Shown here in pieces: positions 1 through 51,329 of a stretch of DNA of 64,000 nt. The translations under genes and the position numbers were made by a program. The DNA lies in contig OZ219747.1 of assembly GCA_964291265.2 (NCBI GenBank), positions 3,296,001-3,360,000 on the forward strand, in the 5' to 3' direction. The stretch is from Alphaproteobacteria bacterium. GTDB taxonomy: Bacteria > Pseudomonadota > Alphaproteobacteria > SP197. Below the pieces are notes generated by a model. The model was not told the DNA's origin. It worked only from the letters and a program-made list of their open reading frames with translations, and searched no databases. Positions within the stretch are counted from its first letter, which is position 1. Every line of letters starts with the position of its first letter.

Positions 1-1985
1 ACCCGAGGGGCCTCCAGGTCCGCCGCTGCGATGGCCCAGGGCGCCCCGGTGCAGACCTGCCGTGCGGGCAGGATGCCCGTCCGGATCAGCCGGCGCACGA
101 CCGAGGGATCGACGCCGAGCTGCGCCGAGGCCTCGCTGAGGGACAGTTCGCCGCGCTCCTGGCGTTCGCCCTCACGGTATACCGGAATGCCGCGACGGGA
201 ACGGAAGACGCGCACCCGAACCCGGTTCCAGCCGTTGCCCTTGGTCGTCTTGCGGCCCATGAGGTTGAGAAGCCGGGCCATCTGCTCGTCGGGCAGCTGC
301 CGGGCCAGTCCGGCGACCAGGTCCTCGACCTCCTTGTCGGACGTATAGCGATGCTCGCCGGTACGGAAGCGCTTCACCTCGATCTCGGTATGGTCGCCGC
401 CGCGCCAGTGCAGAAGCAGGTGCACCGTGTCCTGTCGCATGCTGGCGGTGATATCCACCAGGGTCGCGCGCAGGATGTTCTTGCGCAGCTGCGGCGTTGC
501 GGCCTCATGGGACCATGCGCGCTCCAGGTCGGCCCCCAGAGCCAGAAAGGCGTCACGGTCTGCGCACCCCGCTTCTCGCGCCTCGCGGGTCGCCTCGAGC
601 GCCCGAAGCTGCTCTTCGCGCTCGCAGACCTCGGCCAGGCAGGCCTCCCACCGCGCCGCCAGGTTGTGGAGAATGTTGTGGTTGCCGGGATCAACCGCGT
701 CAAACTGTGCCTGCGCACGACCGGCCTTGTACCGGGCTTCCTCCAGCGCCGAGGCGGCGAGGCGGATCCGCGCCGACGTATCGTCGCCGCGCCGCTCGAA
801 CGCCTCCAGCGCGGCAGCCACGCCAAGGGGTTGCGCCGCAGCGAGAACGGCCGCGCTCACGGCCCCGTCGACCCGCACGCCGCCGAAGCCAATGCAGGTG
901 CTGCCCCCCGTGACGACGTCACCCGGACATTGGTAGCGGTGCGACGTGCCGTTGTCCGCAATCTGCATCCGCCGGCCGCAGCAGCCGCAGCGCACAAGGC
1001 CGGCCAGAAGCGCCTTGCCGGCCCGCGGCGCCCCCCGGTTCCCCACGGTGTTCGCCTCGATCACCCTCCGGTTCCTCTCGTACTCGTCCCAGCCGATGTA
1101 GCCCTCGTGGCGGTCGCGCAACAGAACCGACCATGCGGCCTCGGGCTTCATGATCCCTCGGCGTACCTTCCTGGTCCCGCCAGCGTCAACCGTCACCTCC
1201 TGGCGCCGGCGCCCGTACACATAGGCGCCGGCGTAGAGCGGGTTGCTGAGCATCAAGGCCAGCGTCGAGTTCTGCGGCACCCGCCACGCGATCCCGCCAC
1301 CCTTGGGGTCGCGAACCGGGATCCTGATGTCGCGCTTGCGGAACCAGAGATGGACCTGACGGATGCTGCGCAGTTCGCGGAACTTCCGGAACACCAGGTC
1401 GATCGCGTCGCGCTGGTGCTGGTCCGGCGTCTTCTCGATGCCGTGACGGTCGACCTTCTCGAAGCCGGCCGGCAGGTGCAGGAACAACTCCCCGCGCTCG
1501 GCCAGCGCCTGGCGGCTCTCCAGGGACCGCTGGCGGAACACCGCAAGCTCCATGTCCGCAAACTGGCCCTTGAGACCCAGAAAGGCCCGGTCGTCGACCA
1601 TCGCTGGATCGTGGATCCGCTCGCGGTCGCCGACCAGGCAGCCGACGACGGCGCAGATCTCCAGAAGCGCGTGCCAGTCCCGACCATTGCGCGCCAGACG
1701 CGAGGCCTCAAGGGCCAGGACAAGGCCGACCGTGCCGCTGCACACGGCCTGCAGAAGGCGCTCGAAGCCCGGACGCCTCACCCCGCCGCCCGAGACGCCA
1801 AGATCGTCGTCGATCACCTCGACCCTCGCAAAGCCCAGCCCCCGGGCATGGTCCTCGAGGGCGTACTGCAGCTTGCGCCGCTCGACGTGGTTGCGCACCT
1901 GCATCTCGCTCGACTGGCGGATGTACACGATCGCCGAGCGCGCCAGGTGGCCGGCGGTCAGCCGCGCGTCACGCATCACCGTCAT
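1..1985 (-). CDS. Large serine recombinase (resolvase + recombinase + Zn-ribbon + C-terminal HTH), runs off window start
   Basis: Manual translation from ATG 1985: MTVMRDARLTAGHLARSAIVYIRQSSEMQV...VIDDDLGVSG...RPGFERLL...LEASRLARNGRDW. Contains the YxRxS catalytic motif and SRLAR; later LLRCGRC Zn-ribbon. Missing from the ORF track because no stop lies in the window. Confidence 0.93.
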   Translation of the reverse strand, partial: MTVMRDARLTAGHLARSAIVYIRQSSEMQVRNHVERRKLQYALEDHARGLGFARVEVIDDDLGVSGGGVRRPGFERLLQAVCSGTVGLVLALEASRLARNGRDWHALLEICAVVGCLVGDRERIHDPAMVDDRAFLGLKGQFADMELAVFRQRSLESRQALAERGELFLHLPAGFEKVDRHGIEKTPDQHQRDAIDLVFRKFRELRSIRQVHLWFRKRDIRIPVRDPKGGGIAWRVPQNSTLALMLSNPLYAGAYVYGRRRQEVTVDAGGTRKVRRGIMKPEAAWSVLLRDRHEGYIGWDEYERNRRVIEANTVGNRGAPRAGKALLAGLVRCGCCGRRMQIADNGTSHRYQCPGDVVTGGSTCIGFGGVRVDGAVSAAVLAAAQPLGVAAALEAFERRGDDTSARIRLAASALEEARYKAGRAQAQFDAVDPGNHNILHNLAARWEACLAEVCEREEQLRALEATREAREAGCADRDAFLALGADLERAWSHEAATPQLRKNILRATLVDITASMRQDTVHLLLHWRGGDHTEIEVKRFRTGEHRYTSDKEVEDLVAGLARQLPDEQMARLLNLMGRKTTKGNGWNRVRVRVFRSRRGIPVYREGERQERGELSLSEASAQLGVDPSVVRRLIRTGILPARQVCTGAPWAIAAADLEAPR

Positions 1986-2142
1986 CGCCCGCCCCCTCCC
2001 GCAACGCCGCCATCACATGCTCGATCAGCGCCGCGACTGCCGGCTGCAGGGCCCGCCTCAGGTGCGGCCTGTGCCAGACCAATGGCGTCTTCTGGAACAG
2101 GTCCGTCCGGAACACCAGCGGTTCCGCGAGATTGTCCTTCAT
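1969..2142 (-). CDS. Small (57 aa) recombinase-associated hypothetical protein
   Basis: Strong RBS GAGGAGG before ATG 2142 (MKDNLAEPLV...). Stop overlaps the recombinase start. Confidence 0.55.
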   Translation of the reverse strand: MKDNLAEPLVFRTDLFQKTPLVWHRPHLRRALQPAVAALIEHVMAALREGAGDDGDA

Positions 2143-2398
2143 CGAGTTCCTCCTCTGTCTTCCGCAAGGAACCCAGGAAGGATGTCGCGAGATCATGCAG
2201 GTCCGCCAGCGCATCCAGGGACAGCCTCGGTGCCGCGCGAAGCTCGTAGCGCGCGGACTCCGGCAATATCATCCATTCCGCAAGCCGGTGCCGCTTACCT
2301 TGGGAATCAACGACTACGAGAACCGGACGACCGTGAAGCGACCGCCTCACCCGGCATGTCACGCGCTGCCCGGCCAGAGGATGAAAGCGGTAATGCAC
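1982..2398 (-). CDS. Y4bD/DUF5372-like accessory protein of serine-recombinase element
   Basis: VHYRFHPLAGQRV...LAEWM...PRLSLDALADL motif, which I recall as typical of ORFs upstream of Y4bA-like recombinases. Start uncertain (GTG). Confidence 0.6.
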   Translation of the reverse strand: MHYRFHPLAGQRVTCRVRRSLHGRPVLVVVDSQGKRHRLAEWMILPESARYELRAAPRLSLDALADLHDLATSFLGSLRKTEEELDEGQSRGTAGVPDGPVPEDAIGLAQAAPEAGPAAGSRGADRACDGGVAGGGGR

Positions 2399-2442
2399 CG
2401 TGATCTCCGCGCCAGGCGCAATGTGGGGATTCGCCGGGTAGC

Positions 2443-2730
2443 CAGCCCTGGATTTCTATCGCCAACCTTGGGTCCCACATCCTCGCCGTCATGCGACGCC
2501 GACTGTCCGATGACTGGACCAGACGCTACAACACCACACCGGTCCTCATCGAAACCTTCGTCCAGACACCGCGCTACACAGGCACCGTCTACAAGGCGTC
2601 AGGATGGATCCATGTCGGCACCACCAAAGGACGCGGACGCTACGATACGCACAAGAAATTCGACAAGCCCAAAAAGGACATCTGGCTGAGGCCTCTCCGC
2701 AAGGACTGGAAACGCATCCTCAACCGGTGA
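2443..2730 (+). pseudogene. 3' fragment of DUF4338 (DruA-like) domain gene, truncated by the recombinase element
   Basis: PWISIANLGSHIL...DDWTRRYNTTPVLIETFV...YTGTVYKASGWIHVGTTKGRGRYD...KDIWLRPL. Homology starts abruptly at ~2443. Confidence 0.82.
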
Positions 2731-2752
2731 ATATCACCAACAATCACCGCGC

Positions 2753-2766
2753 GACCGAACGCTTAC
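2753..2766 (-). mobile_element. IS66-type terminal inverted repeat (GTAAGCGTTCGGTC on minus strand)
   Basis: gaccgaacgcttac 22 bp after the DUF4338 stop. Same sequence as the outer end of the MITE at 27751 and one base different from that at 33400. Confidence 0.65.
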
Positions 2767-3301
2767 GCGGCGGACGCTTCAACGACATGCCAAGGCCAAC
2801 AGGCATGACGCCGCCCGCGCCCAGAACACACGCGACGAGACCCTTGTCCCGCCCGGCGGATGGACCGTCGCTCTTCACCCCCGCGCGATGCGCAGGGAAC
2901 GTTCCGCCGAACGACGCAACAGGGCAGCCGTGCCCGAATACTCCGAAAAGCGTGCCTGAACAGGCATGATGCACCAGCAGTGGTCACTGAAACCGGCACG
3001 TTGAGAACCCGGGTCGCCTCAAGCATGCTCGGCCCCTGCCACATCGGCACTCCAAGCCCGAAATGGTCCTGGGGTCCGGGCGCGTATGTTGAACCAGGCC
3101 TCCGGATGGGTTATGGGTTGGTCTGTCAGGTTCCAGGTTCGCTGGGGCTTGGCCTTGCGGGCGCGGTGGCGGTCCGGATTCGCGACGGGAGAAGGGTCAT
3201 GATGGGGGCATTGGGCGAAGTCCAGGTGCATGACTTGTCGCTGCTGACCGGGACGGGTGTGAGTGCGAGTGCTTCGCGTGCGCGAACTCACAGGCTTTGT
3301 A

Positions 3302-3316
3302 CCCCCCCCCCCCCCC
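3302..3316. repeat. C15 homopolymer
   Basis: Directly visible run of 15 C. Confidence 0.9.
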
Positions 3317-3339
3317 GGACGAGCCCGGGGACTGAGCCG

Positions 3340-3633
3340 GAGGGCGCCTTCGGGAAGACCGCCCGCCCCCTGATCGCGGCATTCGCCACCTTCGCCGAAT
3401 TCGGGAGCGGCCTGAAAAATCCGCACCCGCGGGGGCATGGCGCCGTCCGCGCGAAGGGGAAACTTCGCAGCAGGAAGCCGAAGCTCTCGGACCGGCAGGT
3501 CCGGCAACTGCGACGCCTGCACGACACTGACGACTGCAACGTGAACGGCCTCGGCGAGGTGTTTCCTGTCTCCCGGCCTGCCGTATGTCGTACTCTTCAG
3601 CGAGCAACTGTTCCTGCTCGACCGGACCTTTGA
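3340..3633 (+). pseudogene. Degraded resolvase/invertase C-terminal part
   Basis: FATFAEF...RAKGKLRSRKPKLSDRQ...EVFPVSRPAVCRTL, i.e. resolvase C-terminal arm + HTH. N-terminus missing. Confidence 0.7.
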
Positions 3634-24019: not shown

Positions 24020-25411
24020 TCAGCCTCCGGAGTCGCGTTCCGTGACGCTCACACCCAGCGCTCTCAGTTTCCGGTGCAATGCGGACCGCTCCATGCCGAC
24101 TGCCGCGGCCGTCCGCGAAATGTTGTTGCCGAAACGCGCCAGCTGGGTCAACAGGTACGTGCGCTCGAAGGCCGCCCGCGCCTCGCGCATTCCGAGGGAC
24201 ATCACATCGCTGGAATCGTGAAACAGGACCGGAGCCAGGCTAGCCTGCCTCAATTCACCGGGCAGCATGTCTGCCGTGATGGCTCCGTTCTCGCCTTCCG
24301 GCGTCATGATCAGCAGGGATTCGATGACGTTGCGCAACTGCCGAACGTTGCCCGGCCAGTTGGCCATCAGCAGAGCCATCTCGGCGTCTCCCGTCAGTGT
24401 CCGGGCACTGAGACCCTGCTGGCACACGGCGCGCCTGATGAAGTACTGAGACAGTGACGCCACGTCCTCGCGCCTTTCCGAGAGTGCCGGGACATTGATC
24501 GACACGACATTCAGGCGGTAGTAGAGATCCTCACGGAAATGACCCGACCGCACTGCTGCGGCGATGTTGCCGCTTGCGGATGTAAGGACCCGCACATCGG
24601 CCCTGACCGACGTGTCGCCACCCAGTCTCGTGAAGACCTGTTCCTGCAGCGCTCTCAGGATCTTGCCCTGTGTGGCCAGAGGCATGTCCGGAACGTTGTC
24701 GAGGAACAACGTGCCTTCGTTGGCGCGCTCGAACACTCCGTGGGTGATGGCTGGCGATGTCCGGGTCTCCCGCCCGAACAGTTCCTCCTCCACTCTTTCG
24801 GGTTCCATGGTGGCGGCATTGATGGCCACGAAAGGACCGCTGGCGCGCGGCGACTGCTGGTGAATGTGCCGCGCCACCAGTTCCTTGCCCGAACCTGCCG
24901 GACCGGTGATGAGGACCCTGCTCCCAGTGGGCGCAACCCTTGAAATGGCTTCGCGCAGTTGCACCATCGCGCGCGACTCGCCGACGAGATCGTCGAGGAC
25001 ATGGGTAGAACGGCGCAGTTCCGCGTTCTCGCGTCGCAGTCTTGCCTCGTCGAGAGCCCGCTTGACCACCAGGAGCACCTTGTCTGTCTGAAGCGGTTTC
25101 TCGATGAAGTCATAGGCACCGATCCTGGTGCACTTGACTGCCGTGGTGATGGTGCCGTGACCGCTGATCATGATGATGGGCATGAACGGATGATGGACAA
25201 CATAGTCGCACAACAGATCGACGCCATCGCGTCGTGCCCCGCGAAACCAGATATCGAGGATCATCAGGGACGGCACCTGTGCGGCCATGGCTGCATCGGC
25301 GGACTCGGGGTCGGATGCCGTGCGCGCCCGGTAGCCCTCGTCCTCGAGAACATCGGCCAGGGCGCGGCGGATGTCGCGCTCGTCATCGACGATGAGGATG
25401 TCGTGCTGCAT
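24020..25411 (-). CDS. ntrX: Response regulator NtrX (REC-AAA-HTH)
   Basis: ILIVDDE, DIW, GPAGSGKE, no GAFTGA, GNNISRTAAAVGMERSALHRKL; downstream of ntrY. Confidence 0.94.
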   Translation of the reverse strand: MQHDILIVDDERDIRRALADVLEDEGYRARTASDPESADAAMAAQVPSLMILDIWFRGARRDGVDLLCDYVVHHPFMPIIMISGHGTITTAVKCTRIGAYDFIEKPLQTDKVLLVVKRALDEARLRRENAELRRSTHVLDDLVGESRAMVQLREAISRVAPTGSRVLITGPAGSGKELVARHIHQQSPRASGPFVAINAATMEPERVEEELFGRETRTSPAITHGVFERANEGTLFLDNVPDMPLATQGKILRALQEQVFTRLGGDTSVRADVRVLTSASGNIAAAVRSGHFREDLYYRLNVVSINVPALSERREDVASLSQYFIRRAVCQQGLSARTLTGDAEMALLMANWPGNVRQLRNVIESLLIMTPEGENGAITADMLPGELRQASLAPVLFHDSSDVMSLGMREARAAFERTYLLTQLARFGNNISRTAAAVGMERSALHRKLRALGVSVTERDSGG

Positions 25412-27678
25412 CAGCCGTCTCTCCGTTCCAGGGGCAGTGACAGGATCACCGATGCACCGCCTTCCTTCCTGTTCCGCAGCGCAAGGTCTCCACCGTGGTC
25501 CCGGATCGTCGATCGGGCAATCGTCAGACCGAGGCCGTATCCGTCATCCTTGCCATGGGATTCATGCGGTTCGAAGAATGTCTCGGGACGCTCTACGGGA
25601 AAGCCCGGGCCATTGTCCTCGATCCTGACAACACACCATGCACCCTCCTCCGCAACGGTTGCCCTCACGATGTCGCCTTCCGCTCTCTCGACATCGTCCA
25701 TGCGAAAGGCCTCCGCTGCGTTCTTGACGATATTGAAGATGGCGGCGCAGATCATGTCGCCATCACAGCGAATCACCGGCGGAACCTCGGGATAGATGCG
25801 CTCGAAAACGACGCGCGCATCGGAGATCTCCTGAAGCCGGATGGCCTTCTCGACAATGTCGACGGCACTTTCCGGAGACATGCTGAACGTCGGCATCCTC
25901 GCGTGGCGGGAAAACTCGTCGACCACGTGGGTCATGTGCATCGCCTGCCGCTTGATGGTGTCGGTGAGTTCCCGGAAGACCTCGGGCGACTCCCTGATGG
26001 CGCCCGCGAACTTGCGCTCCAGCCGCTCGGCGGAAAGCGTGATGGGTGTCAGGGGGTTCTTGATTTCATGGGCCACCCGCAAGGCCACGTCACTCCACGC
26101 GGCCTTGCGCTGCGCGAGCACGAGTGGCGTGACGTCATCGATGGTCATCACGAAACCGCCGCGCTGCGCGGGTCCTCCCCTGCCACTCTCGACCTTGCCG
26201 ATGCGCACGAAGAGACGACGCAACCCGGCCTCGCTGTCCAGGTCGACGCTGCCTGACGCCGCGCGTGCCTTCATGGCCTGCCCGAGAATTCCGGAAGCTT
26301 CGGGCATGGTGTCGACGAGGTGCTCGCCGACAAGGTCGTTCTCGGTCACATTGAGCAGTTCCAGCGCCCGACGGTTCACCAGTTCGACGATCCCGGCGTC
26401 ATCGAGTCCGATGACGCCGGCACTGACGCCGGAAAGGACCGATTCGGTGAAGCGCCGCCGTCCTTCGAGATCCTCGTTGGCTTCAACCAGGGCATGGCGC
26501 TGTTCGGCAATCCGGTCGGCCATGCGGTTGAAGGCCTGACCGAGCAGGGAGAGCTCATCGGACCGTCCGCTCAGCGACACGCGCACCGACAGATCATCCT
26601 GCCGGATCTTCTCGGCGGCACTGGCCAGGGCCACGACCGGACCCACCAGGCGCGATGCGAGTTGCAGGGCGAACCACACGGCGACAAACAGCAGAAGAAG
26701 GGCAGCGACGGCATAGAAAAGGGAAAAGGTCAGTTGCAGGCTGGTGCGTTCGAGAGCGAGTTTTCTGTAGGACGATGCGGCTACGGAGACCCTTCTGGTG
26801 CTCTCGATGACGTCAGGGTCGACACTGCTTCCCGCCAGGAGGTACGTGCTGCCCCGGTTGAGACTGACGAGTGCGCGCACCCTGTCCCTGGCGCTTGACA
26901 TCAGAATGACGGCATCACCGGCATCGGCACGTTCGACCTCGCGTGCCGTGAGAGTCTCCATGCCGAGACCGGTTGAAAGGGTGCCCTGCATGATGATCTG
27001 ACCAAGACTGCTCATCACGACCCACTCCGAGATACCCCTCACACCCGCCCGGTCCTCGAGGTAGGCCGTGAACTCCTCCATGCTTCCCCCTGATTTCGGC
27101 ACGTAGAGTTGAAAGTCGCGGGCGAGTGCCAGGGCGCTGGAGCCAAGGGCAATGCGATGCTCTTCCAGGTAGGCATCGGCAATCCTGGTTGACTGGGCAA
27201 TGGCCGTCTGGACCCGTTGATTGAACCAGGAGTCAATGCCCATGTTGAAGAAGACAGCGGACGACACGCCGATGAGAACAGCGGGGATGGTCGCCGCCAG
27301 ACCGAAGGTGGCAACCAGCCTTGCCTGCAGCCTAGAACCTGCCATTCCCTCCCGGCGCTGCGACCACATGTCGGCAAGGCGGCGGATGATGATCACGGCA
27401 AAGGCAAGCAGGAGGGCGAGGTCGATGTTCAGGAGAACAATGAGGGTGTTCTGGTCCGGTTCGAACGGTCCCGAGCCCGTGAGCGCCCCGTAGGTCGCAA
27501 GGCCGGACAGCACCGCCGCCACCGCGAGAACCACGTTCACGACCCGGCTGCGCGACCATCGTCCGGTCGGCTTGCGGAACCAGCCGAAAGGCCTGGTCAG
27601 CATCGTCCTGACCGGGTTGCCCGGGGAGTGCACCGCTTCCGGTCGTGGAGCATGGACGCCGGTCGTCTCGAGACTCAT
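25411..27678 (-). CDS. ntrY: Sensor histidine kinase NtrY (HAMP-PAS-HK)
   Basis: GSRLQARLV, HAMP, PAS, AWSDVALRVAHEIKNPLTPI, DNGPG, GLGL. Confidence 0.94.
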   Translation of the reverse strand: MSLETTGVHAPRPEAVHSPGNPVRTMLTRPFGWFRKPTGRWSRSRVVNVVLAVAAVLSGLATYGALTGSGPFEPDQNTLIVLLNIDLALLLAFAVIIIRRLADMWSQRREGMAGSRLQARLVATFGLAATIPAVLIGVSSAVFFNMGIDSWFNQRVQTAIAQSTRIADAYLEEHRIALGSSALALARDFQLYVPKSGGSMEEFTAYLEDRAGVRGISEWVVMSSLGQIIMQGTLSTGLGMETLTAREVERADAGDAVILMSSARDRVRALVSLNRGSTYLLAGSSVDPDVIESTRRVSVAASSYRKLALERTSLQLTFSLFYAVAALLLLFVAVWFALQLASRLVGPVVALASAAEKIRQDDLSVRVSLSGRSDELSLLGQAFNRMADRIAEQRHALVEANEDLEGRRRFTESVLSGVSAGVIGLDDAGIVELVNRRALELLNVTENDLVGEHLVDTMPEASGILGQAMKARAASGSVDLDSEAGLRRLFVRIGKVESGRGGPAQRGGFVMTIDDVTPLVLAQRKAAWSDVALRVAHEIKNPLTPITLSAERLERKFAGAIRESPEVFRELTDTIKRQAMHMTHVVDEFSRHARMPTFSMSPESAVDIVEKAIRLQEISDARVVFERIYPEVPPVIRCDGDMICAAIFNIVKNAAEAFRMDDVERAEGDIVRATVAEEGAWCVVRIEDNGPGFPVERPETFFEPHESHGKDDGYGLGLTIARSTIRDHGGDLALRNRKEGGASVILSLPLERRDG

Positions 27679-27750
27679 GGATTGAGGTAGAGCTCCCGAA
27701 ATCCGCCCTGAGCCATCATACAGACGCCACCCGGAACATGCACCCTGCTA

Positions 27751-27828
27751 GTAAGCGTTCGGTCACCCGGTGATGGGGACGATGACAGCACTGAGCGAAT
27801 AATCTCCACCCTCTGACCGAATGCTCAC
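27751..27828 (+). mobile_element. 78-bp MITE with IS66-type IRs
   Basis: GTAAGCGTTCGGTCA ... TGACCGAATGCTCAC; internal CTGAGCGAAT. Confidence 0.75.
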
Positions 27829-27870
27829 ACTTCGGATGAGCGCCGTGTTGAAGACCTTAACGCGCCTCTC

Positions 27871-30800
27871 CTACCAGTTGAGGGCGCCGCGCAGCATGAG
27901 GCTGTCTTCGCTGACCGGCCCCGGCCGGTGCGCGCCCTCGAGGCCGAGGGAGAGTCCCGCGCCGAGGCGGTAGCGGGCGCCGAGCCGCAGGGTGCGCCCG
28001 CCGGTCTCCGCCAGGCTCAAGCCCGCCCAGGGGGTGAGCACCGCGAGAGGCCCCGGACCGGCAAGGCCGAAGCCGTGGCCCACCTCCGCCTCCAGGCGGC
28101 CCTCTGCCGATGTCGTGTCGGAGACGGCCGCGGGCAGGCCGTGGTCGAACAGTTCTCCCAGATCGCTCTCGGTGCGCCCGTGCGCGGGACCGAAGGCGAG
28201 GAAGGTTCCAAGCCCGTCGGCCCCGGGGGCGAGGCGCACCAGGGCGCTCACACCCCACTCGTCACGGTCCGCCTCGTGGGCCGCCAGGAGCCGCGTGCGC
28301 AGCTCCGCCGTCAGACCCTCCGCCGGGTCCCGCCATGTCACGCTCGCCCCGGCCTCGAGGCCCGCCCCCTCGGCGGCGTCGCCCGCGTCATGGCGCACCC
28401 CCGCCTCCAGGGCCGGGGTCAGCGTCGCACCGCTTGCCAGCGCATGCTCGTGCGACCCCTCCAGCAGCAGCCGCAGGCGGGTCGTCCTCGCCGTCAGTCC
28501 CGCCAGGCCGTCATCGGCCTCCGTGCGCAGGCGCGCCAGCGCGCCCTCGCCCTTGACCGCAAGGCGCGTCATGCCGCCCTCGATGAGGTCCGCATGCTCG
28601 ATGAGGACGCTGCGGGCGCCCGCCGCCGCGCTCCACTGCGCCAGGTCCGTGCTGCGCACCGGCGCCCCCTCCTCGGCAATCCGCACCTCGCCGGTCCCGT
28701 AGCCGAGGCTCGCCCACAGGGTCGAGCCGTCCGCCAGCAACCACGCCGCATAGGGATGCACCGACGTGATCGTGGTCTCGTGGACGCCCTTCACCTGGTC
28801 CGTCTGCGTGTCCAGCTCGCCCCGCACATGGGAGAGCGCCGCCCCGGCCAGAAGGTCGGGGCGCAGGCGCACGTCCGCCCCCAGCTGCGCCGACCACAGG
28901 CCGCCGTCCCACGACACGCCGCCTTGCGAACCCGACAGCGACAGCCACGCGCCCCGGCCCCACACGGCCAGCGGCGGCGCGGAGGCCTCGCCCTCGGCGC
29001 CCGCCGCCAGGGTGAAGGAGGCGCCGTCCAGCACCTCGGCCATGCTCGGGCCGGGCTCCTCCGGGTGCGGCGACGCCCACGCGTCCTCCACCGGTGACGG
29101 CAGGGCGCCGAACTGCACCGTGCCGCCCCCCTCGCCGGAGGCCACCGCCTCGATGCGACCCGTCACCGCCCCCAGGGTCTGCGACATCGCCGCCGCCGCC
29201 ACGTGCGGCAGCACCGCCGCATTCACCCGGTTCGACCTTGCCATGGACCCCGCCGCCCGGTCGCGCAGAACGCCAAGCGCCGTGGCGTCGTTCCCCACCA
29301 CGTAGTCCGCCGCATCGTTCAGCGTGATGCGGTAGGCTTCCGCGCCTTCCGCATCCGCATCGGCCGCCGTCGGGATCGTCACCACGCCCGTTCGCCGCCC
29401 CGCGGCGCCGAACACCGCATCGAACGAACGCGGACCCAGGCCGCCTGGAACGTCCCCGGCATCGAAGCCGCCGCCGTCCCGGGACGCCAGGGTCAGGCTC
29501 ACCCTCAGGCTGCCCGTCAGCGCCCGGTCGGCGCTCACCACGAGGCGGATGGCCTCGCCCTCGGTCACCGCCGCCGGATCCTGCGCCAGGGTCAGCACCG
29601 GCAAGAGCGTTGTGTCCGTCACCGTCACCGCCACCGAATCGATGGTCACCGAAGCGTAGCCGCCGCCGCTCGCACCATGGGTCAGCGTCGCCGTGTCGTC
29701 GGTCGTGTCCTCGTCACGGGCCGCGCGCACCGTCACCCGTTGCGCCGTGTCCCAGTTGGCCGTGGTGAAGGTCAGGCTCGCCGGTTCCACCGTCACCTCG
29801 CCCGAGGCGCCGCCCACCGTCACCGTGACCTCGCCCGAGGGCTCGGTGTCCAGCACCACCGTGTAGGCCGCACTGCTCCCCTCCGCCACCGTCAGCGCGG
29901 TCGGCGTCACCGTCACGCTTGCGTCTGCGGTGGGCGTCGTGCCGCCTCCGCCACCGCCACCGCCGCCTCCGCCGGGCGCCACCGGCGCCGCCGGCGTCGC
30001 CGTCACCGGCGCATCCGGACCGGCGCCGTTGCCGGCCCCGTTCACCGCGCGCACCTCGAACTGGTAGGCAGTGCCGTTCGTCAGACCGCTCACCTCGTAG
30101 CTGGTGGTGCCCGCAGCGGAGCCGGGAATGTCCTCCCACGCGCCCCAGTCGTCGCTGCCGGCCTTCCGCCGCACCTGCCACTTGGTGATGGTCGGATTGT
30201 CCGGGGCGGTCCAGCTCAGCGTCACCGAACCGTTGCCCGCCGCGCCGGCAAGGCCTGTCGGTTTCCCGGGCGCCACATCCTTCTCCGCCACGCTCACCAC
30301 CACAGAGGCGATGGTCACCGAGGCGTAGCCGCCGCCAGACGCGCTGTGGGTCAGCGTTACGGCGGCGTCCGTCGTCGTGTCCGTGTCCGTGCCTGCGTTC
30401 ACCGTCACCGTCTGCGGCTGGTTCCAGTTGGCTCTGGTGAAGGTCAGCGACGCGCCCGTCACCGTCACGTCCCCCGACGCGCCCGCCACCGTGATCGTCA
30501 CATCCGATGTCGGCGGCGTGTTCAGCCGCATCGTGTACGTCCTGCTGCCGCCTTCCGCCACCGTCAGCGCCGCCGTCGACACTGTCACCCCCGGCGTATC
30601 GGCCACCGTCACGTCCACCGTGCCCGCATCGGGAATCGCATCCGCAGAAGCCCCCGTCAGCCGGAAGGCGTGGTTGATCACCGCCGTGCCGTTCGCCACA
30701 CCGGTCACCGTCACCGTCCGCGCCGTGCTGTAGTTGGTGGTGGTGAAGGTCAGGCTCGCCGGACTGACCCGCGCCGCCGCCGTGGCGTCGCTCGTCACCC

Positions 30801-33057
30801 GCAGCGTCCCCGCATAGGCCTTCGTCAGCGCCACCGTGTAGGTCGCCGTGGAACCGGGCGCCACCGTCACCGGCGTCCCGGTCAGCGTGAGCGCCGCCGT
30901 GGTGTCGTCCTTGAAGGTCACCGTACGGATGTTCGACCAGGGACCCTGAAGGTTACCCGTTCCCCCGGCGACCCCCGCCATGCGATAGCCCGTCGCCCGA
31001 ACCCGGACCTCGACCGATGCCCCGTCAGGATAGTTCAGCAGAAGCCGATTGTTGCGAGAGCCCGGATTCTGTCTGGCACTCGCCTGGTTGAGACTGTGAT
31101 CCGTCCAGGTGCTTGCCCCCTTCAGCCGGGTCTGCGCTCTCCACCAATGGAACTTGGCCGCGTCTTTCACATAGTCGTCCGCATCCGATAACTCGTTCGA
31201 GCCGCCGGCATGGGTCCAGGTCAGGTCGATCTGCCCGTTCGTCGTCGAAGTCGCCGCCGTCAGCACCGGGGCCGCCGGATCGGTCTTCGCCGTCACCTGA
31301 TCCGACCACACCGACTGCACACCGGGACTGACCGCCGCGAACAGGCGGAACGTGTAGTCCGTGCCCTTCGTCAGACCCGTCACCCGGACGCTCGTCCTGC
31401 TTGCGCCCGTGAGCGTCGTGGTCGTGTTCCAGCCGCCCGTGCTCTTGTACTGATAGCCCCAGCTCGTGATCGGAATGCCCGTCAAGGCGCTCCAGCTCAG
31501 GGTGACCGAGGCATCGCCCCCCGCCGCCGTCAGAACCGGCTTGGGAACCGTATTCGTCGGCGTCGCCTTCACCTGGTCCGACCACACCGACTGCACCCCG
31601 GGACTGACTGCCGCAAACAGCCGGAACGTGTATTCCGTGCCGATCGTCAGTCCCGTCACCGTGGTGCTCGTCGTGCTGGCGCCCGTGACCGTCCGGGTCC
31701 TGATCCAGCTGCCGCCCGCGGGCTTGTACTGATAGCCCCAGCTCGCTACCGTCACACCCGACAGCGCGCTCCAGCTCAGGGTGACCCTGGCGTAACCCGC
31801 TTCGGCGCTCAGCACCGGCTTGGGAACCGCCGCCGACGCCGACGGCGTCGCCTCCACCACCGCCGACGCGGCGCCGTTGCCGCCGCTGTTCCGCGCCCGG
31901 ATGCGGAAGCGGTACTCGCTGTCGTTGTCCAGACCCGTCACCGTGTGGGTCGTGGTGTCGGCGTCCGAATCGGGAATCGCGGTCCAACTGCCCCAGGCGG
32001 CGCTGCCCTTCCTCTGCTGCACCCGATACCGCGTGATCGAATCGTCGTCCGGATCGTTCCAGGTCAGCTCCACCTCACCGTTGCCCGCCTCCGCCGACAG
32101 GCCCGTCGGCGCCGCGGGGACGGCGACGGCTTCGTCGTCGTCGGTGATGGTCAGGGTGAGTCTGCCGGAGGTCCAACCGGTCACGTACCCAAGCAGCTTG
32201 ATGGTCTCGTTCGGCTCGTCCCGGGTGTCGCCGAGAATGCGCACTTTCATCGTGCCCTGGGTCTCGCCTTCGGCGATGGAGACCGTGACGCTGCCCGGAT
32301 AGCACCAGTCGGTATCCGCCGGGATCAGCGGCGCCGTGCAGGGATCGCGCCCCTTGTTGGAGCCTTTGGCCGTACCACTGGGGCTGTCAGAAGTAACGGT
32401 GATCGAAAAGCCCGCCGGCGCCGCCTCGCCGAGCGTGACGGTCACCGTCACGTCCGTCGAACCGGTGTCGCCCTCGGTGATCGAGGTCGATGTCGCCGAC
32501 AGGGTGATCGTCTTCGTGGAAGCGGCCGCCGTTGGCGTCGCCGTGGCCCCGTTCGAGTACCCTCCCCCACTAGCGAAGACGGAAAAGTTGAGACCGGTAC
32601 CTTCTGCCCTTGCCACCTGGAAGGTATAGGAGGTGCTGGCGGTCAACCCTGTGACCGTGTGGGCTCTGATGGTGGCGCCGCCCGGTATATCGATCCAGTC
32701 GCCGTAACCTCCTCCGGTGACCCCCTGTCGGTAGACCCAATATCCAAATCCAGTGTTGCCGGTACGAGTCCAGGAGAGTGTGACACTGCCGACACCCGCG
32801 GTTGCCGTGAGCGCCGGCTTCGCCTGCGCCTGTGCGTCCTGGGGCGCGAGGGCGGCACCCAGCATGATGAGGAAGAGGGCAGCGAGTCCCGCCTTCAGGC
32901 GGCGGGCGGTTCTCCCGAGGGCGCCCACCGGCTCAGCCCCGCGCCCGGACTCTTGAGGGGGGGGGGTACGAAGTTCTGGGGTTCGCGCGTGCGTGAGGCG
33001 CTCACGCCCGAAGTGCGACAGGTCATGCTCCCCGACATCGTAAGGCGTCCGCGTCAT
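27871..33057 (-). CDS. Autotransporter adhesin with fibronectin type III and Calx-beta/cadherin-like domains
   Basis: RBS GGGAGG before ATG 33057; extended signal ending AQAQA; several FN3 domains (VTLSW...YTFRL/FEVRAVN); LGDTRDEPNETI Calx-beta-like; C-terminal beta-barrel ending LMLRGALNW. Confidence 0.9.
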   Translation of the reverse strand: MTRTPYDVGEHDLSHFGRERLTHARTPELRTPPPQESGRGAEPVGALGRTARRLKAGLAALFLIMLGAALAPQDAQAQAKPALTATAGVGSVTLSWTRTGNTGFGYWVYRQGVTGGGYGDWIDIPGGATIRAHTVTGLTASTSYTFQVARAEGTGLNFSVFASGGGYSNGATATPTAAASTKTITLSATSTSITEGDTGSTDVTVTVTLGEAAPAGFSITVTSDSPSGTAKGSNKGRDPCTAPLIPADTDWCYPGSVTVSIAEGETQGTMKVRILGDTRDEPNETIKLLGYVTGWTSGRLTLTITDDDEAVAVPAAPTGLSAEAGNGEVELTWNDPDDDSITRYRVQQRKGSAAWGSWTAIPDSDADTTTHTVTGLDNDSEYRFRIRARNSGGNGAASAVVEATPSASAAVPKPVLSAEAGYARVTLSWSALSGVTVASWGYQYKPAGGSWIRTRTVTGASTTSTTVTGLTIGTEYTFRLFAAVSPGVQSVWSDQVKATPTNTVPKPVLTAAGGDASVTLSWSALTGIPITSWGYQYKSTGGWNTTTTLTGASRTSVRVTGLTKGTDYTFRLFAAVSPGVQSVWSDQVTAKTDPAAPVLTAATSTTNGQIDLTWTHAGGSNELSDADDYVKDAAKFHWWRAQTRLKGASTWTDHSLNQASARQNPGSRNNRLLLNYPDGASVEVRVRATGYRMAGVAGGTGNLQGPWSNIRTVTFKDDTTAALTLTGTPVTVAPGSTATYTVALTKAYAGTLRVTSDATAAARVSPASLTFTTTNYSTARTVTVTGVANGTAVINHAFRLTGASADAIPDAGTVDVTVADTPGVTVSTAALTVAEGGSRTYTMRLNTPPTSDVTITVAGASGDVTVTGASLTFTRANWNQPQTVTVNAGTDTDTTTDAAVTLTHSASGGGYASVTIASVVVSVAEKDVAPGKPTGLAGAAGNGSVTLSWTAPDNPTITKWQVRRKAGSDDWGAWEDIPGSAAGTTSYEVSGLTNGTAYQFEVRAVNGAGNGAGPDAPVTATPAAPVAPGGGGGGGGGGGTTPTADASVTVTPTALTVAEGSSAAYTVVLDTEPSGEVTVTVGGASGEVTVEPASLTFTTANWDTAQRVTVRAARDEDTTDDTATLTHGASGGGYASVTIDSVAVTVTDTTLLPVLTLAQDPAAVTEGEAIRLVVSADRALTGSLRVSLTLASRDGGGFDAGDVPGGLGPRSFDAVFGAAGRRTGVVTIPTAADADAEGAEAYRITLNDAADYVVGNDATALGVLRDRAAGSMARSNRVNAAVLPHVAAAAMSQTLGAVTGRIEAVASGEGGGTVQFGALPSPVEDAWASPHPEEPGPSMAEVLDGASFTLAAGAEGEASAPPLAVWGRGAWLSLSGSQGGVSWDGGLWSAQLGADVRLRPDLLAGAALSHVRGELDTQTDQVKGVHETTITSVHPYAAWLLADGSTLWASLGYGTGEVRIAEEGAPVRSTDLAQWSAAAGARSVLIEHADLIEGGMTRLAVKGEGALARLRTEADDGLAGLTARTTRLRLLLEGSHEHALASGATLTPALEAGVRHDAGDAAEGAGLEAGASVTWRDPAEGLTAELRTRLLAAHEADRDEWGVSALVRLAPGADGLGTFLAFGPAHGRTESDLGELFDHGLPAAVSDTTSAEGRLEAEVGHGFGLAGPGPLAVLTPWAGLSLAETGGRTLRLGARYRLGAGLSLGLEGAHRPGPVSEDSLMLRGALNW
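31285..31830 (-). repeat. Tandemly duplicated FN3 domains (~270-bp units)
   Basis: VPKPVL..VTLSWSAL.G....SWGYQYK...YTFRLFAAVSPGVQSVWSDQV occurs twice with high DNA identity. Confidence 0.85.
32957..32966 (-). repeat. C10 homopolymer (coding strand) in autotransporter 5' region
   Basis: G10 on + strand, encoding RTPPPQ upstream of the signal peptide H-region. Confidence 0.88.
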
Positions 33058-33290
33058 GACCTTGCCCTCCCGTCCGTCGCGAAATCCGGGCCGCCGCGCC
33101 GGCAACCGACCCGTGGTCATCAGTAACCCATGCCGCAGGCCGGTTTCAAGACGTGTCGCGCCCGAGAGCACCGGGGACCGGATGATCGAGGATGGCCGGG
33201 TCCGTGTCGACGCCGGGCCAATCAGCACAGCGCATCGATCGTCCCGTCATCTCCGGCCGGCCGGTCAGCACATCGTCAAGCAGGCACTCG

Positions 33291-33400
33291 GCAAGCATTC
33301 GGTCAAGGGGCGACGAAGATGGACATGACAGTGCCATACTGCGCATTGTTCCGGTTTTGTCGCCTGCATTCGCTCAGGTCCATAGTGACCGAACGCTTGC
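33291..33400 (-). mobile_element. 110-bp MITE with IS66-type IRs, inverted relative to the 27751 copy
   Basis: GCAAGCATTCGGTCA ... TGACCGAACGCTTGC; ATTCGCTCAG is the reverse complement of the internal CTGAGCGAAT. Confidence 0.75.
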
Positions 33401-33415
33401 CCCTGCTGCCCGTCC

Positions 33416-34207
33416 CTATCCGATGATGACATCCGTGACGAACTTCACTCCGGGATAGGCCAGAGTCATCAGGAGATAGCCGGTCAGCACCAGGCGCGCC
33501 GCCTTGCGGCCCCGCGTTCCCCATAGCTGGCGCGCCGCAAGCAGCATGGCAATGACGGTGAAGGCGGCCACCGTGAAGACGATCTTGTGATTCATGCCGA
33601 TGACGGCATCCGCCGTCGCGGTGGCCGCAAGGCCTGTCGCGATTCCGGCGGCAAGGATGATCTCGCTTGTCACGAGCAGGCGGATCTCAAGTCGCTCGCA
33701 ATCGGCCAGGGATGGCAGCAACGGTGTCAGCCGACCCGGCCTGCGCCGCTTGAGAGCCCGTTCCTGAAGAATGACGGCGAACCCCGCAACCGCCGCCATG
33801 GTCAGGAACACATAGGTCGCGACCGACAGGACCACGTGAAGTCCGATCCACTCGGGGACGAACGCCATTCCCGAAGATCGCGCTGCCTCTGCCTGGCTCC
33901 AGACCAGAGCCAGAACCGCCATGACGAGGATCCAGGGACCGAGGATGGCTCCCAACCGCCAGAACTCCGAGACCAGGAGGGAAAGCACGAGAAACAGCAC
34001 CAGGCAGGTCGAGATCGTCAGCCAGATTGCGGGTCCGAACCCGGTGGACCAGGAGTTGCCGAACTGAGCGGCCGTCCATGCCGTGGCGGCAAGCGCCGCC
34101 AGACCGAAGGCCCCCCAGAAGCGCAGCCCCTTCTCGAATCGGCCCACGAACGGCAGAACTCCTGCCGGAACCAGCAGGACAGGGACCAGGTGAAGCCAGA
34201 AGATCAT
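33416..34207 (-). CDS. Cytochrome c assembly (CcsA/YpjD-like) membrane protein
   Basis: WIGLHVVLSVATY...QERALK...LPSL...HKIVF...WGTRGRKA...LAYPGVKFV. Confidence 0.88.
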   Translation of the reverse strand: MIFWLHLVPVLLVPAGVLPFVGRFEKGLRFWGAFGLAALAATAWTAAQFGNSWSTGFGPAIWLTISTCLVLFLVLSLLVSEFWRLGAILGPWILVMAVLALVWSQAEAARSSGMAFVPEWIGLHVVLSVATYVFLTMAAVAGFAVILQERALKRRRPGRLTPLLPSLADCERLEIRLLVTSEIILAAGIATGLAATATADAVIGMNHKIVFTVAAFTVIAMLLAARQLWGTRGRKAARLVLTGYLLMTLAYPGVKFVTDVIIG

Positions 34208-34314
34208 GGGAGCATCCTCGCCAATTCACCCGATCGCCGCAATCCCGCTCACGCCAGGAGGAACCAGTCGCACAGGCGCTTCTGTGAACGGTGTGAACGC
34301 GCTAGTCTGCCGGC

Positions 34315-35472
34315 ATGGGCAAGTCGTCGCATTCGATTGCTGCTGTCGTCGTGGCGGCCGGCCGGGGTGAGCGCGTGGGCGGGCCGGTTCCCAAGCAGTA
34401 TCGGCCCCTCGGCGGCCGCCCGCTCATCCACTGGTCGCTCAGCCGCCTTGCCGCGCACCCGGCCATTCATCCGCTTCTGGCCGTCATACATCCCAACTTC
34501 GAGGCGCTTCACGGGGAGGCTGTCGCCGGACTCGATCTTCTCCCCGCCGTCCATGGCGGCGCCACGCGCCAGGAGTCGGTTCTGAATGGTCTCGAGGCCC
34601 TGCGCGTTCACGCGCCGGACTATGTTCTCGTTCATGATGCGGCGCGGCCCTTTGTCAGCGAACGCCTTCTCGACGACATCGTGCGGTCTCTCAGGGAACG
34701 CGAGTGTGGCGTCATTCCGGTGACCGCCATCACCGATACAGTGAAGTACCGCTCCGGCGGCGAGGTGACGGGAACCGCCGACAGGGACCGGCTTGTCTGC
34801 GCGCAGACTCCCCAGGGATTTCCCTATGCCGGAATACTCGCGGCCCACGAACAGGCCGCAGGCCGCACGTTCACCGATGACGCCGCCGTTGCCGAAGCTG
34901 CCGGCATGACCGTCGTCGCCGTCGACGGCGACAGGCCCAACATCAAGGTCACGCACGAGGAGGATTTCGCGATGGCCTGCAACCGGACCGAGATCTCGAT
35001 CGGCACGGGCTATGACGCCCATGCGCTCGTGACCGGCGATCATGTCATGCTGTGCGGTGTGCGCATCGACCACGACCGCACCCTCGCAGGCAACACGGAT
35101 GGCGATGTCGGGCTCCACGCCCTTGTCGACGCCATGTTCGGAGCGCTTGGCTGCGGCGACCTCGGGCAGCATTTCCCTGTGGACGACGCCATATGGCGGG
35201 GGCGGCCCTCGGGGGATCTTGTCGATGTCGCACGGCGCCTGATGGCGGAACACTGCGCAACCCTGCTCCATGCCGACATCACCCTGATGTGCCAGAAACC
35301 GCGCCTCGCTCCCCACCAGGGGGCGATGCGCCACAGCGTGGCCGGACTTCTCGATGTCGGAGAGGCGCGGGTCAACATCAAGGTGACGTCGACGGACGGT
35401 CTCGGTTTCCTGGGCCGGTGCGAGGGCATCGCAGCCGCGGCTACCGTCACCGTTCGCCGTCCGTTGTCGTGA
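34315..35472 (+). CDS. ispDF: Bifunctional IspD/IspF
   Basis: AAGRGER, PKQY, VHDAARPF, QTPQGF, TDDA; IspF GYDAH...DGDVGLHA...GDLGQHFP. Confidence 0.95.
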   Translation: MGKSSHSIAAVVVAAGRGERVGGPVPKQYRPLGGRPLIHWSLSRLAAHPAIHPLLAVIHPNFEALHGEAVAGLDLLPAVHGGATRQESVLNGLEALRVHAPDYVLVHDAARPFVSERLLDDIVRSLRERECGVIPVTAITDTVKYRSGGEVTGTADRDRLVCAQTPQGFPYAGILAAHEQAAGRTFTDDAAVAEAAGMTVVAVDGDRPNIKVTHEEDFAMACNRTEISIGTGYDAHALVTGDHVMLCGVRIDHDRTLAGNTDGDVGLHALVDAMFGALGCGDLGQHFPVDDAIWRGRPSGDLVDVARRLMAEHCATLLHADITLMCQKPRLAPHQGAMRHSVAGLLDVGEARVNIKVTSTDGLGFLGRCEGIAAAATVTVRRPLS

Positions 35473-35473
35473 C

Positions 35474-35965
35474 ATGCGTCGCAATCCGGCCATGAAGGGA
35501 CTCGCGCCGTGGGTGGCGACCCTGGGAGGAATCGGGCTCCTTCGTCCGATGCCGGGAACCCTGGGCTCCCTTGCCGCCCTTCCGCCCGCCTTCCTTGTCA
35601 TGCAGTGTGCCGGACCGTGGGCTCTCCTCGCGGCATCCTTCGTCCTTCTCGTGGCGGGACTCGTGGCCGTCAGGCACGTTGCCGCCGCAATGGAGTCGGA
35701 CGCCGACCCGGACCACGGCGCCATCGTCATCGACGAGGCGTGCGGTCAGTTTCTTGCCCTCATGCCGGCCATGCTCTCCCCCGTTCTGTGGATTCTCTCC
35801 TTCCTTCTCTTCCGGCTCTTCGACATCTGGAAACCCGGACCCATTCGCATGATCGAGCGGCGCGTCGCGGGCGCCTGGGGCGTCATGCTCGACGACGTGG
35901 CTGCGGGAACTGCAGCGGCGGCATGTGTCTGGACAATCTCCCGGACAGGGTGGATCGATGTTTGA
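35474..35965 (+). CDS. pgpA: Phosphatidylglycerophosphatase A
   Basis: PGTLGS, IVIDEACG, FRLFDIWKPGPI, GVMLDDVAAG. Confidence 0.94.
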   Translation: MRRNPAMKGLAPWVATLGGIGLLRPMPGTLGSLAALPPAFLVMQCAGPWALLAASFVLLVAGLVAVRHVAAAMESDADPDHGAIVIDEACGQFLALMPAMLSPVLWILSFLLFRLFDIWKPGPIRMIERRVAGAWGVMLDDVAAGTAAAACVWTISRTGWIDV

Positions 35966-49909: not shown

Positions 49910-51329
49910 TTCGGCGCCTCCTTCGTCTGGATGAACATGGCTCATGAACGCCGCAAAGGCAACAAGTAACGCAAACGCCAATCCGGCGGTGTCAGCCTGC
50001 GCTCGGCGCGCTGGCCGTGATGGGCGCCGGTCTTCGCCGAGCTGTTCGGCCCCGTGGCCATCATTCTCCACGCGACGGCGTTGAGCTTTCCCGCATGGGG
50101 TGCCTGGCGATGGCTGACCTCTCGCGGACAAGTCCGGATGGCTGCGCAGCAGGGCGGACGGCCGGATGCCGCATCGGAGACGGTACGGTCAGACGGCGTC
50201 GGCGGCGATGCGGAGCTTGCCCCCGGAGGCCGAGCGTGGCTGCCGGGACATGCGCAACACATCCGGCATACGCTCGAGAACACCGCTGCGCCACCAGGCA
50301 TGGAAACAGCTCTGAACCGGGGAAAACGGTGGATCATCAGACGGTATCAGGCGCCACTGGCACCCGATGCCAGCATGAACTGGATTCCATCGAACACCCG
50401 GCGGGGGTCCGTCGTGCGGGGCCGACCATCCGGGCCTGCGCCGAGGTCAGAGGCTCGATGAGTGCTCACTCCTCGTCGCTCGGATCGTCTTGCCGGAAGT
50501 CGTCGCTGCGCCCGTACTTCGCCTGGGTGGCCCCAGTCCAGGCCATGGTAAGCGTTCGATCAAGGGTGACGATGATGAGGATGACAGTGACAACCACGAA
50601 TTGCCCCGGGACTCGCCTGCATTCGCTCAGTGCTGTCATCGCCGCAATCACCGCGTCAACCAACGCTTGCAGGCCATGATACCCTTCAGTTGTGGATTAC
50701 ACACCTGACCGGACTACCATCAGGCGTCCTGACCTCGGCTTCGATGTTTCAAATCAGAGTGATGCTTCTGGGCGGAGTTTGCGTACGTTGTCTGGCAGTC
50801 GAGGGGCTCCAAGTTCGAGAAGGAGACGATCGGTCCGTCTACCTTGGCAAGGGAGAAGCAAGCGGTTCCGATCAGGACGGCTTCAGGCGGGCGCATCGCG
50901 AGCGTGTTCAGGGCCGGGATTATCCCATAATCGGCATCATAGTGTATTGGACCGCAACGCGACTGTGCTGTCACGCACAACACCGGACAAGATTCTGGTT
51001 AGTGACGGCCGAAGCGCCGTCACTAAGCGGGTTTGGACGAAGGCCGCGCCTCCCCGGTGTCGACATGCAGAAAGTGTGAAGGAGGTGTTGTTGACGGACG
51101 CGCGAGGAGGCGTGTTGTCCGACGTCGGGGCGTGATGTTCGGCCTTATATGACGAAGGATGTTGGGCCTGCGGGACGCGGGCGGTCGCCCTGGCATGGGG
51201 TTCCAAATCTTTCATTGTGCTGGGAAAAATGGAGACGAAATGATCAAGTCAGCTCACGAGGTCAGGACGTCTGACCATGGCCCGGGGCCAGCGACTTCGG
51301 GAACAGGCTCTGAGGCGGCTCGGAAGAAC

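Follow-up and report, generated by a model that had tools for sequence, protein, structure and literature searches.

An Inverted Pair of IS66-Type Miniature Elements Brackets a Predicted Autotransporter Adhesin Gene at Two Chromosomal Sites of an Alphaproteobacterium

Introduction

In the units called TIME-COMPs or IMUs, two transposase-less miniature elements, in direct or inverted orientation, bound a cargo of ~1 to >10 kb, and one target duplication surrounds the whole. In the parts of the reports consulted, transposase acting in trans is shown experimentally, and the units form when a second MITE (miniature inverted-repeat transposable element) jumps beside a first. Their ends are of the Tn3 family, their duplications measure 5 to 6 bp, they lie mostly on plasmids, and they carry resistance, resolvase or replication genes (PMC4133298, PMC13367494). 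Here we describe a 5,650-bp chromosomal unit in which two inverted IS66-type MITEs bracket a single gene for a predicted FN3-repeat surface adhesin. The unit lies in a 64,000-nucleotide stretch of an alphaproteobacterial genome (the window; G000:C2:3296001-3360000, where G000 is the source genome). Coordinates without a prefix are positions in the window.

Two further systems are close to this one. Pairs of a 439-bp MITE around class 1 integrons of Acinetobacter have the same inner junctions at different sites, with duplications of their own. The consulted parts of the reports describe identical direct copies with 5-bp duplications and resistance cargo, assign no transposase, and argue from sequence (PMC3934969, PMC9771954). 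ISDge4, of the ISBst12 group of the IS66 family, is described in the consulted part of its report as having one transposase open reading frame (ORF), imperfect GTAA/GTGA ends and an 8-bp duplication (PMC12898284). A literature search for IS66 MITE composites or MITE-borne autotransporters, covering few subscription journals and with ISfinder outside its scope, found none, and no IS66 composite of MITEs was found in the consulted parts of PMC10969869, PMC6382973 and PMC3281130. The element family and its cargo appear to be undescribed; the mechanism itself is known.

Results

Structure of the unit

The unit is inserted between a ccsA-like gene and ntrY. It spans 5,650 bp between 8-bp target-site duplications at 27743-27750 (CCCTGCTA, ntrY side) and 33401-33408 (CCCTGCTG, ccsA side), which match at 7/8 positions. 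The left MITE (27751-27828, plus strand) is an internally deleted element of 78 bp that agrees with the right end of an IS66 element at 22/24 positions. The right MITE (33291-33400, minus strand) has 110 bp and agrees with the same end at 15/24; a 19-bp deletion trims its outer end to 16 bp, and a 16-bp core is kept. The terminal 15-mers pair at 13/15 positions in the left MITE and at 14/15 in the right, and the two outer ends are 15/16 identical. Alignment to full-length family members showed that the same arm, arm A, which bears CTGAGCGAAT, faces outward on both sides, so that the MITEs are inverted. No duplication was found around either MITE singly, the flanks differing at 5 and 6 positions. 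The ORF list and Pfam gave no transposase gene inside the unit, and between the MITEs lies a single long minus-strand ORF, in the orientation of the neighboring genes. An earlier note, made from the sequence alone, had described these elements, their inverted repeats and shared outward end, the flanking repeats, the lack of single-MITE duplications and the place and orientation of the insertion, and all of these coordinates and features hold.

The chance that two random 8-mers in the source genome match with at most one mismatch is 0.0008. Across the 19 MITE pairs lying ≤25 kb apart, 0.015 pairs with a shared 8-mer would be expected; 2 were seen directly, or 3 if a second unit masked by an insertion sequence (IS) is included (see below).

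Empty sites in congeners and support from sequencing runs

To place the insertion, 11 congener ntrY loci (L012 to L022) were compared. In 8 of them (L012 to L019) the site is empty: the ccsA-like stop codon is followed by 7 nt, one 8-mer and the ntrY leader, which is the arrangement anticipated in the earlier note. These single 8-mers indicate that the insertion was exact. The 8-mer is kept in L020, but the upstream gene is different; L021 has ccsA and a diverged spacer, and L022 has a different upstream gene. Neither unit, adhesin nor MITE was found at any of the 11 loci.

These sites bear on whether the MITEs inserted independently beside a resident adhesin gene, with the 8-mers matching by chance. 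The imperfect flank match (7/8) would fit such a history. It is refuted by the empty sites, where congeners with neither adhesin nor MITE have exactly one 8-mer, and the 0.015 expected among the 19 close pairs and the repetition of the arrangement in a second unit also leave it with next to no probability.

The junctions are spanned by contigs of three sequencing runs, all from a single study (for example, 27391-27892 in X2 and 32979-35500 in X3). The insertion is therefore no assembly artefact, although one run may be the source sample; the X3 contig carries 57 differences. Exact-pattern scans of JGI metagenomes with the cassette inner junction and the MITE end gave 0 matches, which carries little weight, since the organism may be absent from these data.

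A second unit with the same inner junctions

A second MITE-adhesin-MITE unit was found at G000:C2:3488521-3496589. Its two MITEs and both of its inner junctions are those of the window unit. The left MITE of the window is 77/78 identical to its counterpart (G000:C2:3496512-3496589); several changes separate the two right-hand MITEs. The duplication of the second unit was at first unseen, as the outer end of the 5′ MITE is interrupted by an IS4-like element, which is itself flanked by an 8-bp duplication (7/8). Once this element is set aside, CGCCGTGA flanks both sides of the unit (G000:C2:3486085-3496589) at 8/8 positions. The flanks of this second site are joined in 4/5 congeners, with a single CGCCATGA in G013 in matching context (by eye). 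The second unit is inactivated: an IS remnant replaces the promoter and leader, and another IS splits the barrel. Empty sites and a second insertion with its own duplication bear out the earlier claim that the transposase-less pair moved as a unit.

Alternatively, a solo MITE could have inserted with its 8-bp duplication and acquired the adhesin gene afterwards, through gene conversion or through homologous recombination with a circle that bore a MITE. In favor of this, the genome has many MITEs, most of them without duplications; adhesin paralogues are 98% identical over their 3′ 4.2 kb with differing 5′ ends that point to gene conversion; and the right-hand MITEs of the two units are not the same. 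However, a single crossover into a MITE yields direct copies and those here are inverted. Moreover, two unrelated sites share these inner junctions, and each of the two has its own duplication and its own empty site. The orientation of the MITEs and the existence of the second unit largely refute this history, which we consider very improbable.

A third MITE pair, at G000:C1:217609-219144, is in direct orientation and brackets a gene for a 406-aa Mrr-family nuclease (Pfam) within a perfect 8-bp duplication. Other candidates were set aside. Two MITE pairs >1.2 Mb apart with 7/8 flanks were attributed to coincidence, as 0.8 such matches are expected in 1,000 pairs. Among the 10 regions examined of 65 matches listed, MITE pairs in genome G035 (L084 and L085) and a MITE end near an adhesin gene in G037 (L086) are not composites, there being no shared outer duplication. 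A possible donor, locus H (G000:C2:1501115-1501702, L024), was rejected: its MITE is without its own duplication and internally different, and there is no 3′ MITE. Locus H is an adhesin remnant with the 5′ MITE junction, in which a deletion just past a poly-C tract collapses the gene; an integrase tail lies behind it.

The IS4-like element in the second unit consists of a DruA domain and an IS4-like transposase (G000:C2:3486093-3488511) and has about nine relatives. Their 8-bp targets mostly include CAAGC, GCTTG or CCTTG, as found in the MITE/IS66 end, and IS-on-IS targeting is possible.

The MITE family and its IS66 relatives

IS66 inverted repeats begin GTAA, and classical IS66 elements have three genes, tnpA, tnpB and tnpC. 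In a census of the source genome, the MITE family (~124 bp) had 50 complete short copies of 78 to 138 bp, and the end motif occurred 164 times at ≤1 mismatch. Ten of the 50 complete MITEs have their own 8-bp duplication, perfect in 6 and with one mismatch in 4. Both MITEs of the unit belong to this family and carry deletions. The IS66 transposase family gave 86 matches in the genome. Of the elements longer than 1 kb that show these ends together with a perfect duplication, 25/25 had a duplication of exactly 8 bp; IS66 transposase sequence is contained in 20 of them, and 2 match unbroken the 598-aa ORF of the candidate transposase (G000:C2:181806-184069). The Pfam match to the IS66 transposase was DDE_Tnp_IS66 (E 1e-50). 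The two natural ends of the cognate IS66 element are 21/24 alike. TnpB (PF05717) had 0 matches in the 100%-complete source genome, with control matches in 3/14 genomes; without tnpB, the IS66 elements of this genome fit the single-ORF ISBst12 group. Judged by these ends, the MITEs derive from IS66-family (ISBst12-type) elements. The assignment to IS66 with 8-bp duplications made in the earlier note therefore stands, and the genome holds cognate IS66 elements, whose identification it had proposed, that share these ends and have unbroken transposase ORFs.

Several other elements of this kind were observed. A solo 123-bp MITE at 50548-50670 has a perfect 8-bp duplication, AGGCCATG. An IS66 element of 8 kb that contains nested insertions has its right end within window positions 1-3400, at 2766; beyond it come the degenerate promoter and leader of an adhesin gene and a tract of 15 C, and no adhesin follows. 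Many IS66 copies (2,883 bp, e.g., L007) share a ~660-bp insertion close to where the transposase gene starts; this insertion may represent the 5′ fragment of a group II intron. IS66-type ends with perfect 8-bp duplications and no IS66 transposase were also seen at C2:3086228-3092790 (L026), C1:38865-40833, C2:64403-66252 and C2:1597656-1601907; the cargo of L026 is four tandem Rpn/YhgA-like genes with internal IS ends between them.

The cargo encodes an FN3-repeat autotransporter

The gene between the MITEs (27871-33057, minus strand) is intact and encodes a 1,728-aa FN3-repeat autotransporter (Pfam fn3, E 6.6e-45), a predicted surface adhesin. The ORF most likely starts at the ATG at 33057, a start common to the paralogues. 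Residues 48 to 78 show a basic-hydrophobic-AQA pattern (by eye and by hydropathy), from which an extended signal peptide with cleavage near residue 76 to 78 is predicted. The passenger consists of FN3 and other beta-sandwich repeats, and a linker helix and beta-barrel with a final Trp residue follow (27874-29250, minus strand). Pfam PF03797 had no match on the full-length protein, and a sequence and profile search of the PDB with the adhesin found no relative. The C-terminal domain alone matched TIGR01414 (20.2 bits; cutoff, 16) and scored 0.96 to PF03797 clusters in the ESM Atlas. An AlphaFold model of the barrel reached a pLDDT of 39 from the single sequence and 51 from an 8-sequence alignment; the best Foldseek matches of the latter were Hbp, BrkA and EspP (E 4e-6 to 5e-5), and ~130 extra residues lie beyond the confidently modeled strands. 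By these models and profiles, the C terminus is an autotransporter beta-barrel as in type Va proteins, in line with the FN3 autotransporter named in the earlier note, and the FN3 repeats and architecture suggest that the protein may be displayed at the surface and bind a host or matrix ligand. The layout resembles that of Hbp, BrkA and EspP, with a putative signal peptide, passenger, helix plus beta-barrel and terminal aromatic residue. In contrast with these proteins, the passenger is of FN3/beta-sandwich type, the ~130 residues are extra, and the leader contains poly-C.

The barrel domain ends proteins of widely varying length (5,128 clusters at E up to 1e-10). The 150 best relatives have 301 to 6,523 aa, so that a protein of 1,728 aa is mid-sized and the epithet "giant" in the earlier note does not apply. 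The source genome also has a 6,178-aa member at G000:C2:3048083-3066619, with a barrel 68% identical and IS genes at its flanks.

A 10-C tract lies in frame in the leader coding region (32957-32966, minus strand) and is covered by X1 and X2 contigs without gaps. Poly-C tracts of 9 to 33 bases occur in the leader of 16 adhesin genes (source-genome paralogues and L067 to L076), and 3/14 measurable genes, the window copy included, are in frame. This pattern suggests slipped-strand phase variation of a multicopy adhesin family; errors in the assembly of homopolymers, or a GTG start farther downstream, may also account for it.

A promoter and gene remnants inside the unit

A promoter-like motif (TTGAAA, 17 to 18 nt, TANNGA/T; 33120-33149, minus strand), noted by eye, is kept upstream of adhesin relatives and is likely the adhesin's own promoter, carried within the unit. 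A consensus promoter scan missed this motif and gave another site at 33210-33182. The right MITE sits in a remnant of a type IA topoisomerase gene, 16 codons of which (33243-33290, minus strand; Pfam Topoisom_bac) separate it from the adhesin promoter region. The remnant is 15/16 identical to residues 567 to 582 of a 753-aa topoisomerase at G000:C2:1690809-1693067 and is presumably TopB/TraE-like. At the other end, the 3′ spacer (27829-27870) resembles, by eye, the very last part of a tyrosine-integrase gene in antisense orientation. Such a gene follows related adhesin genes (Pfam Phage_integrase on L069), and the spacer probably derives from one. The topoisomerase remnant and integrase-like tail together suggest that the adhesin gene came on an integrative element. 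That the adhesin is the sole cargo, as the earlier note had it, does not strictly hold; the topoisomerase remnant and the integrase-like spacer are additional.

Distribution of the adhesin and of the MITEs

The source genome has close paralogues of the adhesin, 98 to 99% identical in the barrel for copies A, C, E and G and 85% for B. No MITE pair was found at A, B, C, E or G, and locus H has a 5′ MITE only. Copies A, C, E and G and the window copy are 98 to 99% identical over the 3′ 4.2 kb and ~77 to 84% identical in promoter and leader, and their N-terminal passenger domains differ. Gene conversion with variable tips is a likely cause of this 3′ identity with divergent 5′ ends. In a barrel tree that left out copy F and loci L069 and L080 to L083, the window copy falls with A, C, E and G into one clade (100/100) confined to the source genome, and B groups with other genomes.

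Relatives of the adhesin subfamily occur in what are, from taxon names, presumably sponge symbionts. The subfamily is 75 to 84% identical in distant Alphaproteobacteria whose LipA is 63 to 66% identical, and 77% identical in a Ca. Binatia genome with a LipA of 50%. Adhesins of congeners are ≤44% identical although LipA is 93% (G013). By these identities, the subfamily has clearly crossed lineages. A DNA search did not find the MITE family in 22/22 congeners, with short end matches in G012; the family is present in three of the distant adhesin-bearing genomes. Immediately 3′ of adhesin genes in two genomes (L070, L080 and locus B of the source genome) there is an older short element whose ends are similar; its own duplication in L070 and L080 is CGTCATGC.

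The MITE pair might also carry the adhesin gene between species of a shared habitat, as the earlier note had proposed for symbionts. This would fit both the identity across distant lineages, far above that in congeners, and the finding of the MITE in three distant genomes and in none of the 22 congeners. However, MITEs bracketed 0/18 adhesin loci (within 10 kb) in five other genomes, the five paralogues lack the pair, the window clade is specific to the source genome, and the integrase tails and topoisomerase remnant point to integrative elements as the carriers. We therefore regard such a role as distinctly unlikely. On sequence comparison, MITE and adhesin draw on a common gene pool, and it is within the source genome that the pair is seen as a vehicle.

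Neighboring genes and the ntrY promoter

The host genes at the flanks are ntrY (25411-27678, minus strand; Pfam NtrY_N, HAMP, HisKA and HATPase_c) and a ccsA-like cytochrome c assembly gene (33416-34207, minus strand; Pfam Cytochrom_C_asm), within a conserved alphaproteobacterial block of ntrY, ntrX, trkA, ispDF and others. A promoter-like motif upstream of ntrY (TGCATG, 16 nt, TATGAT; 27715-27742, minus strand) lies intact outside the unit, starts directly downstream of the target 8-mer and is kept in 10/10 aligned congener loci. It persists in loci where ccsA is not upstream, which suggests that ntrY likely retained its own promoter after the insertion. The suggestion in the earlier note that the insertion alters ntrYX transcription is accordingly doubtful. 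A sigma-70 scan of 27600-27950 found neither a promoter nor a terminator; with no terminator found, there may be read-through from the adhesin gene into ntrY.

Discussion

The structure of the unit, its duplications, the empty sites, the second copy and the matching IS ends are direct observations. They are best explained by a nonautonomous composite, an inverted IS66-type MITE pair plus the adhesin gene, that was inserted at two chromosomal sites with 8-bp duplications, likely by the genome's single-ORF IS66 transposase acting in trans; we hold this reading to be very probable. The adhesin gene would have arrived on an integrative or conjugative element. One MITE would then have inserted into the topoisomerase gene and another just behind the adhesin gene, and transposase pairing the two outer ends would have lifted the adhesin and its promoter from the decaying element. 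The block could have been cut and pasted or copied by the cell's own IS66 transposase in trans. Since neither MITE keeps its own duplication, neither site is the birthplace, and the lack of single-MITE duplications at both sites, with no donor found, suggests that the unit jumped at least twice. The window copy is possibly locked in by its shortened right end; the corresponding end of the second unit is fuller.

Several points weigh against this composite-transposition reading. The two repeats of the window duplication differ at one position, and the single 8-mer of the congeners matches a window repeat at only 6 to 7 of 8 positions. A motif search of the source genome did not find a donor site (a MITE with its own inner-flank duplication), and no empty allele of the source species was found among 15 of 100 joints listed. 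In this genome, 40/50 MITEs are without their own duplication, and rearrangement at MITEs is therefore common. The outer ends on the two sides are one and the same arm, and acceptance of such a like-end pair by the transposase is presumed, as is mobilization in trans; the natural ends of the IS66 element are 21/24 alike, and a Tn3-type precedent allows inverted pairs.

On a broader view, this MITE family, shared by unrelated bacteria of one habitat, would be a general means of transposase-free gene capture. Its pairs would have taken a phase-variable adhesin and a restriction nuclease from decaying integrative elements into core-genome sites and would also feed adhesin traffic between Alphaproteobacteria and Binatota. 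We offer this extension tentatively and think it unlikely as a whole.

MITE-pair composites have so far been proven mainly for Tn3-type ends, resistance cargo and plasmids. The present case, unusually well documented, is chromosomal and involves another transposase family, with two insertions of one unit, a third pair with different cargo and a candidate transposase present. It suggests that elements of 80 to 120 bp, overlooked by annotation, can relocate a 5-kb surface protein gene together with its promoter. The system also offers a direct assay for single-ORF IS66 transposases, which have been little studied, and for the question of whether a pair of like ends is enough.

Compared with the ISBst12 group, the window unit uses such ends only and encodes no transposase. 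Like the Acinetobacter pairs, as far as the consulted parts of those reports describe them, it is non-Tn3 and has the same inner junctions at different sites; unlike them, its MITEs are unequal, deleted and inverted, and a candidate transposase is present in the same genome. The architecture is that of a TIME-COMP, with mobilization in trans proposed here from the sequence. In contrast with TIME-COMPs, the unit has IS66/ISBst12-type ends and 8-bp duplications, is chromosomal and carries a 5.2-kb adhesin cargo. By analogy, the window unit works like a TIME-COMP and is not a member of that group.

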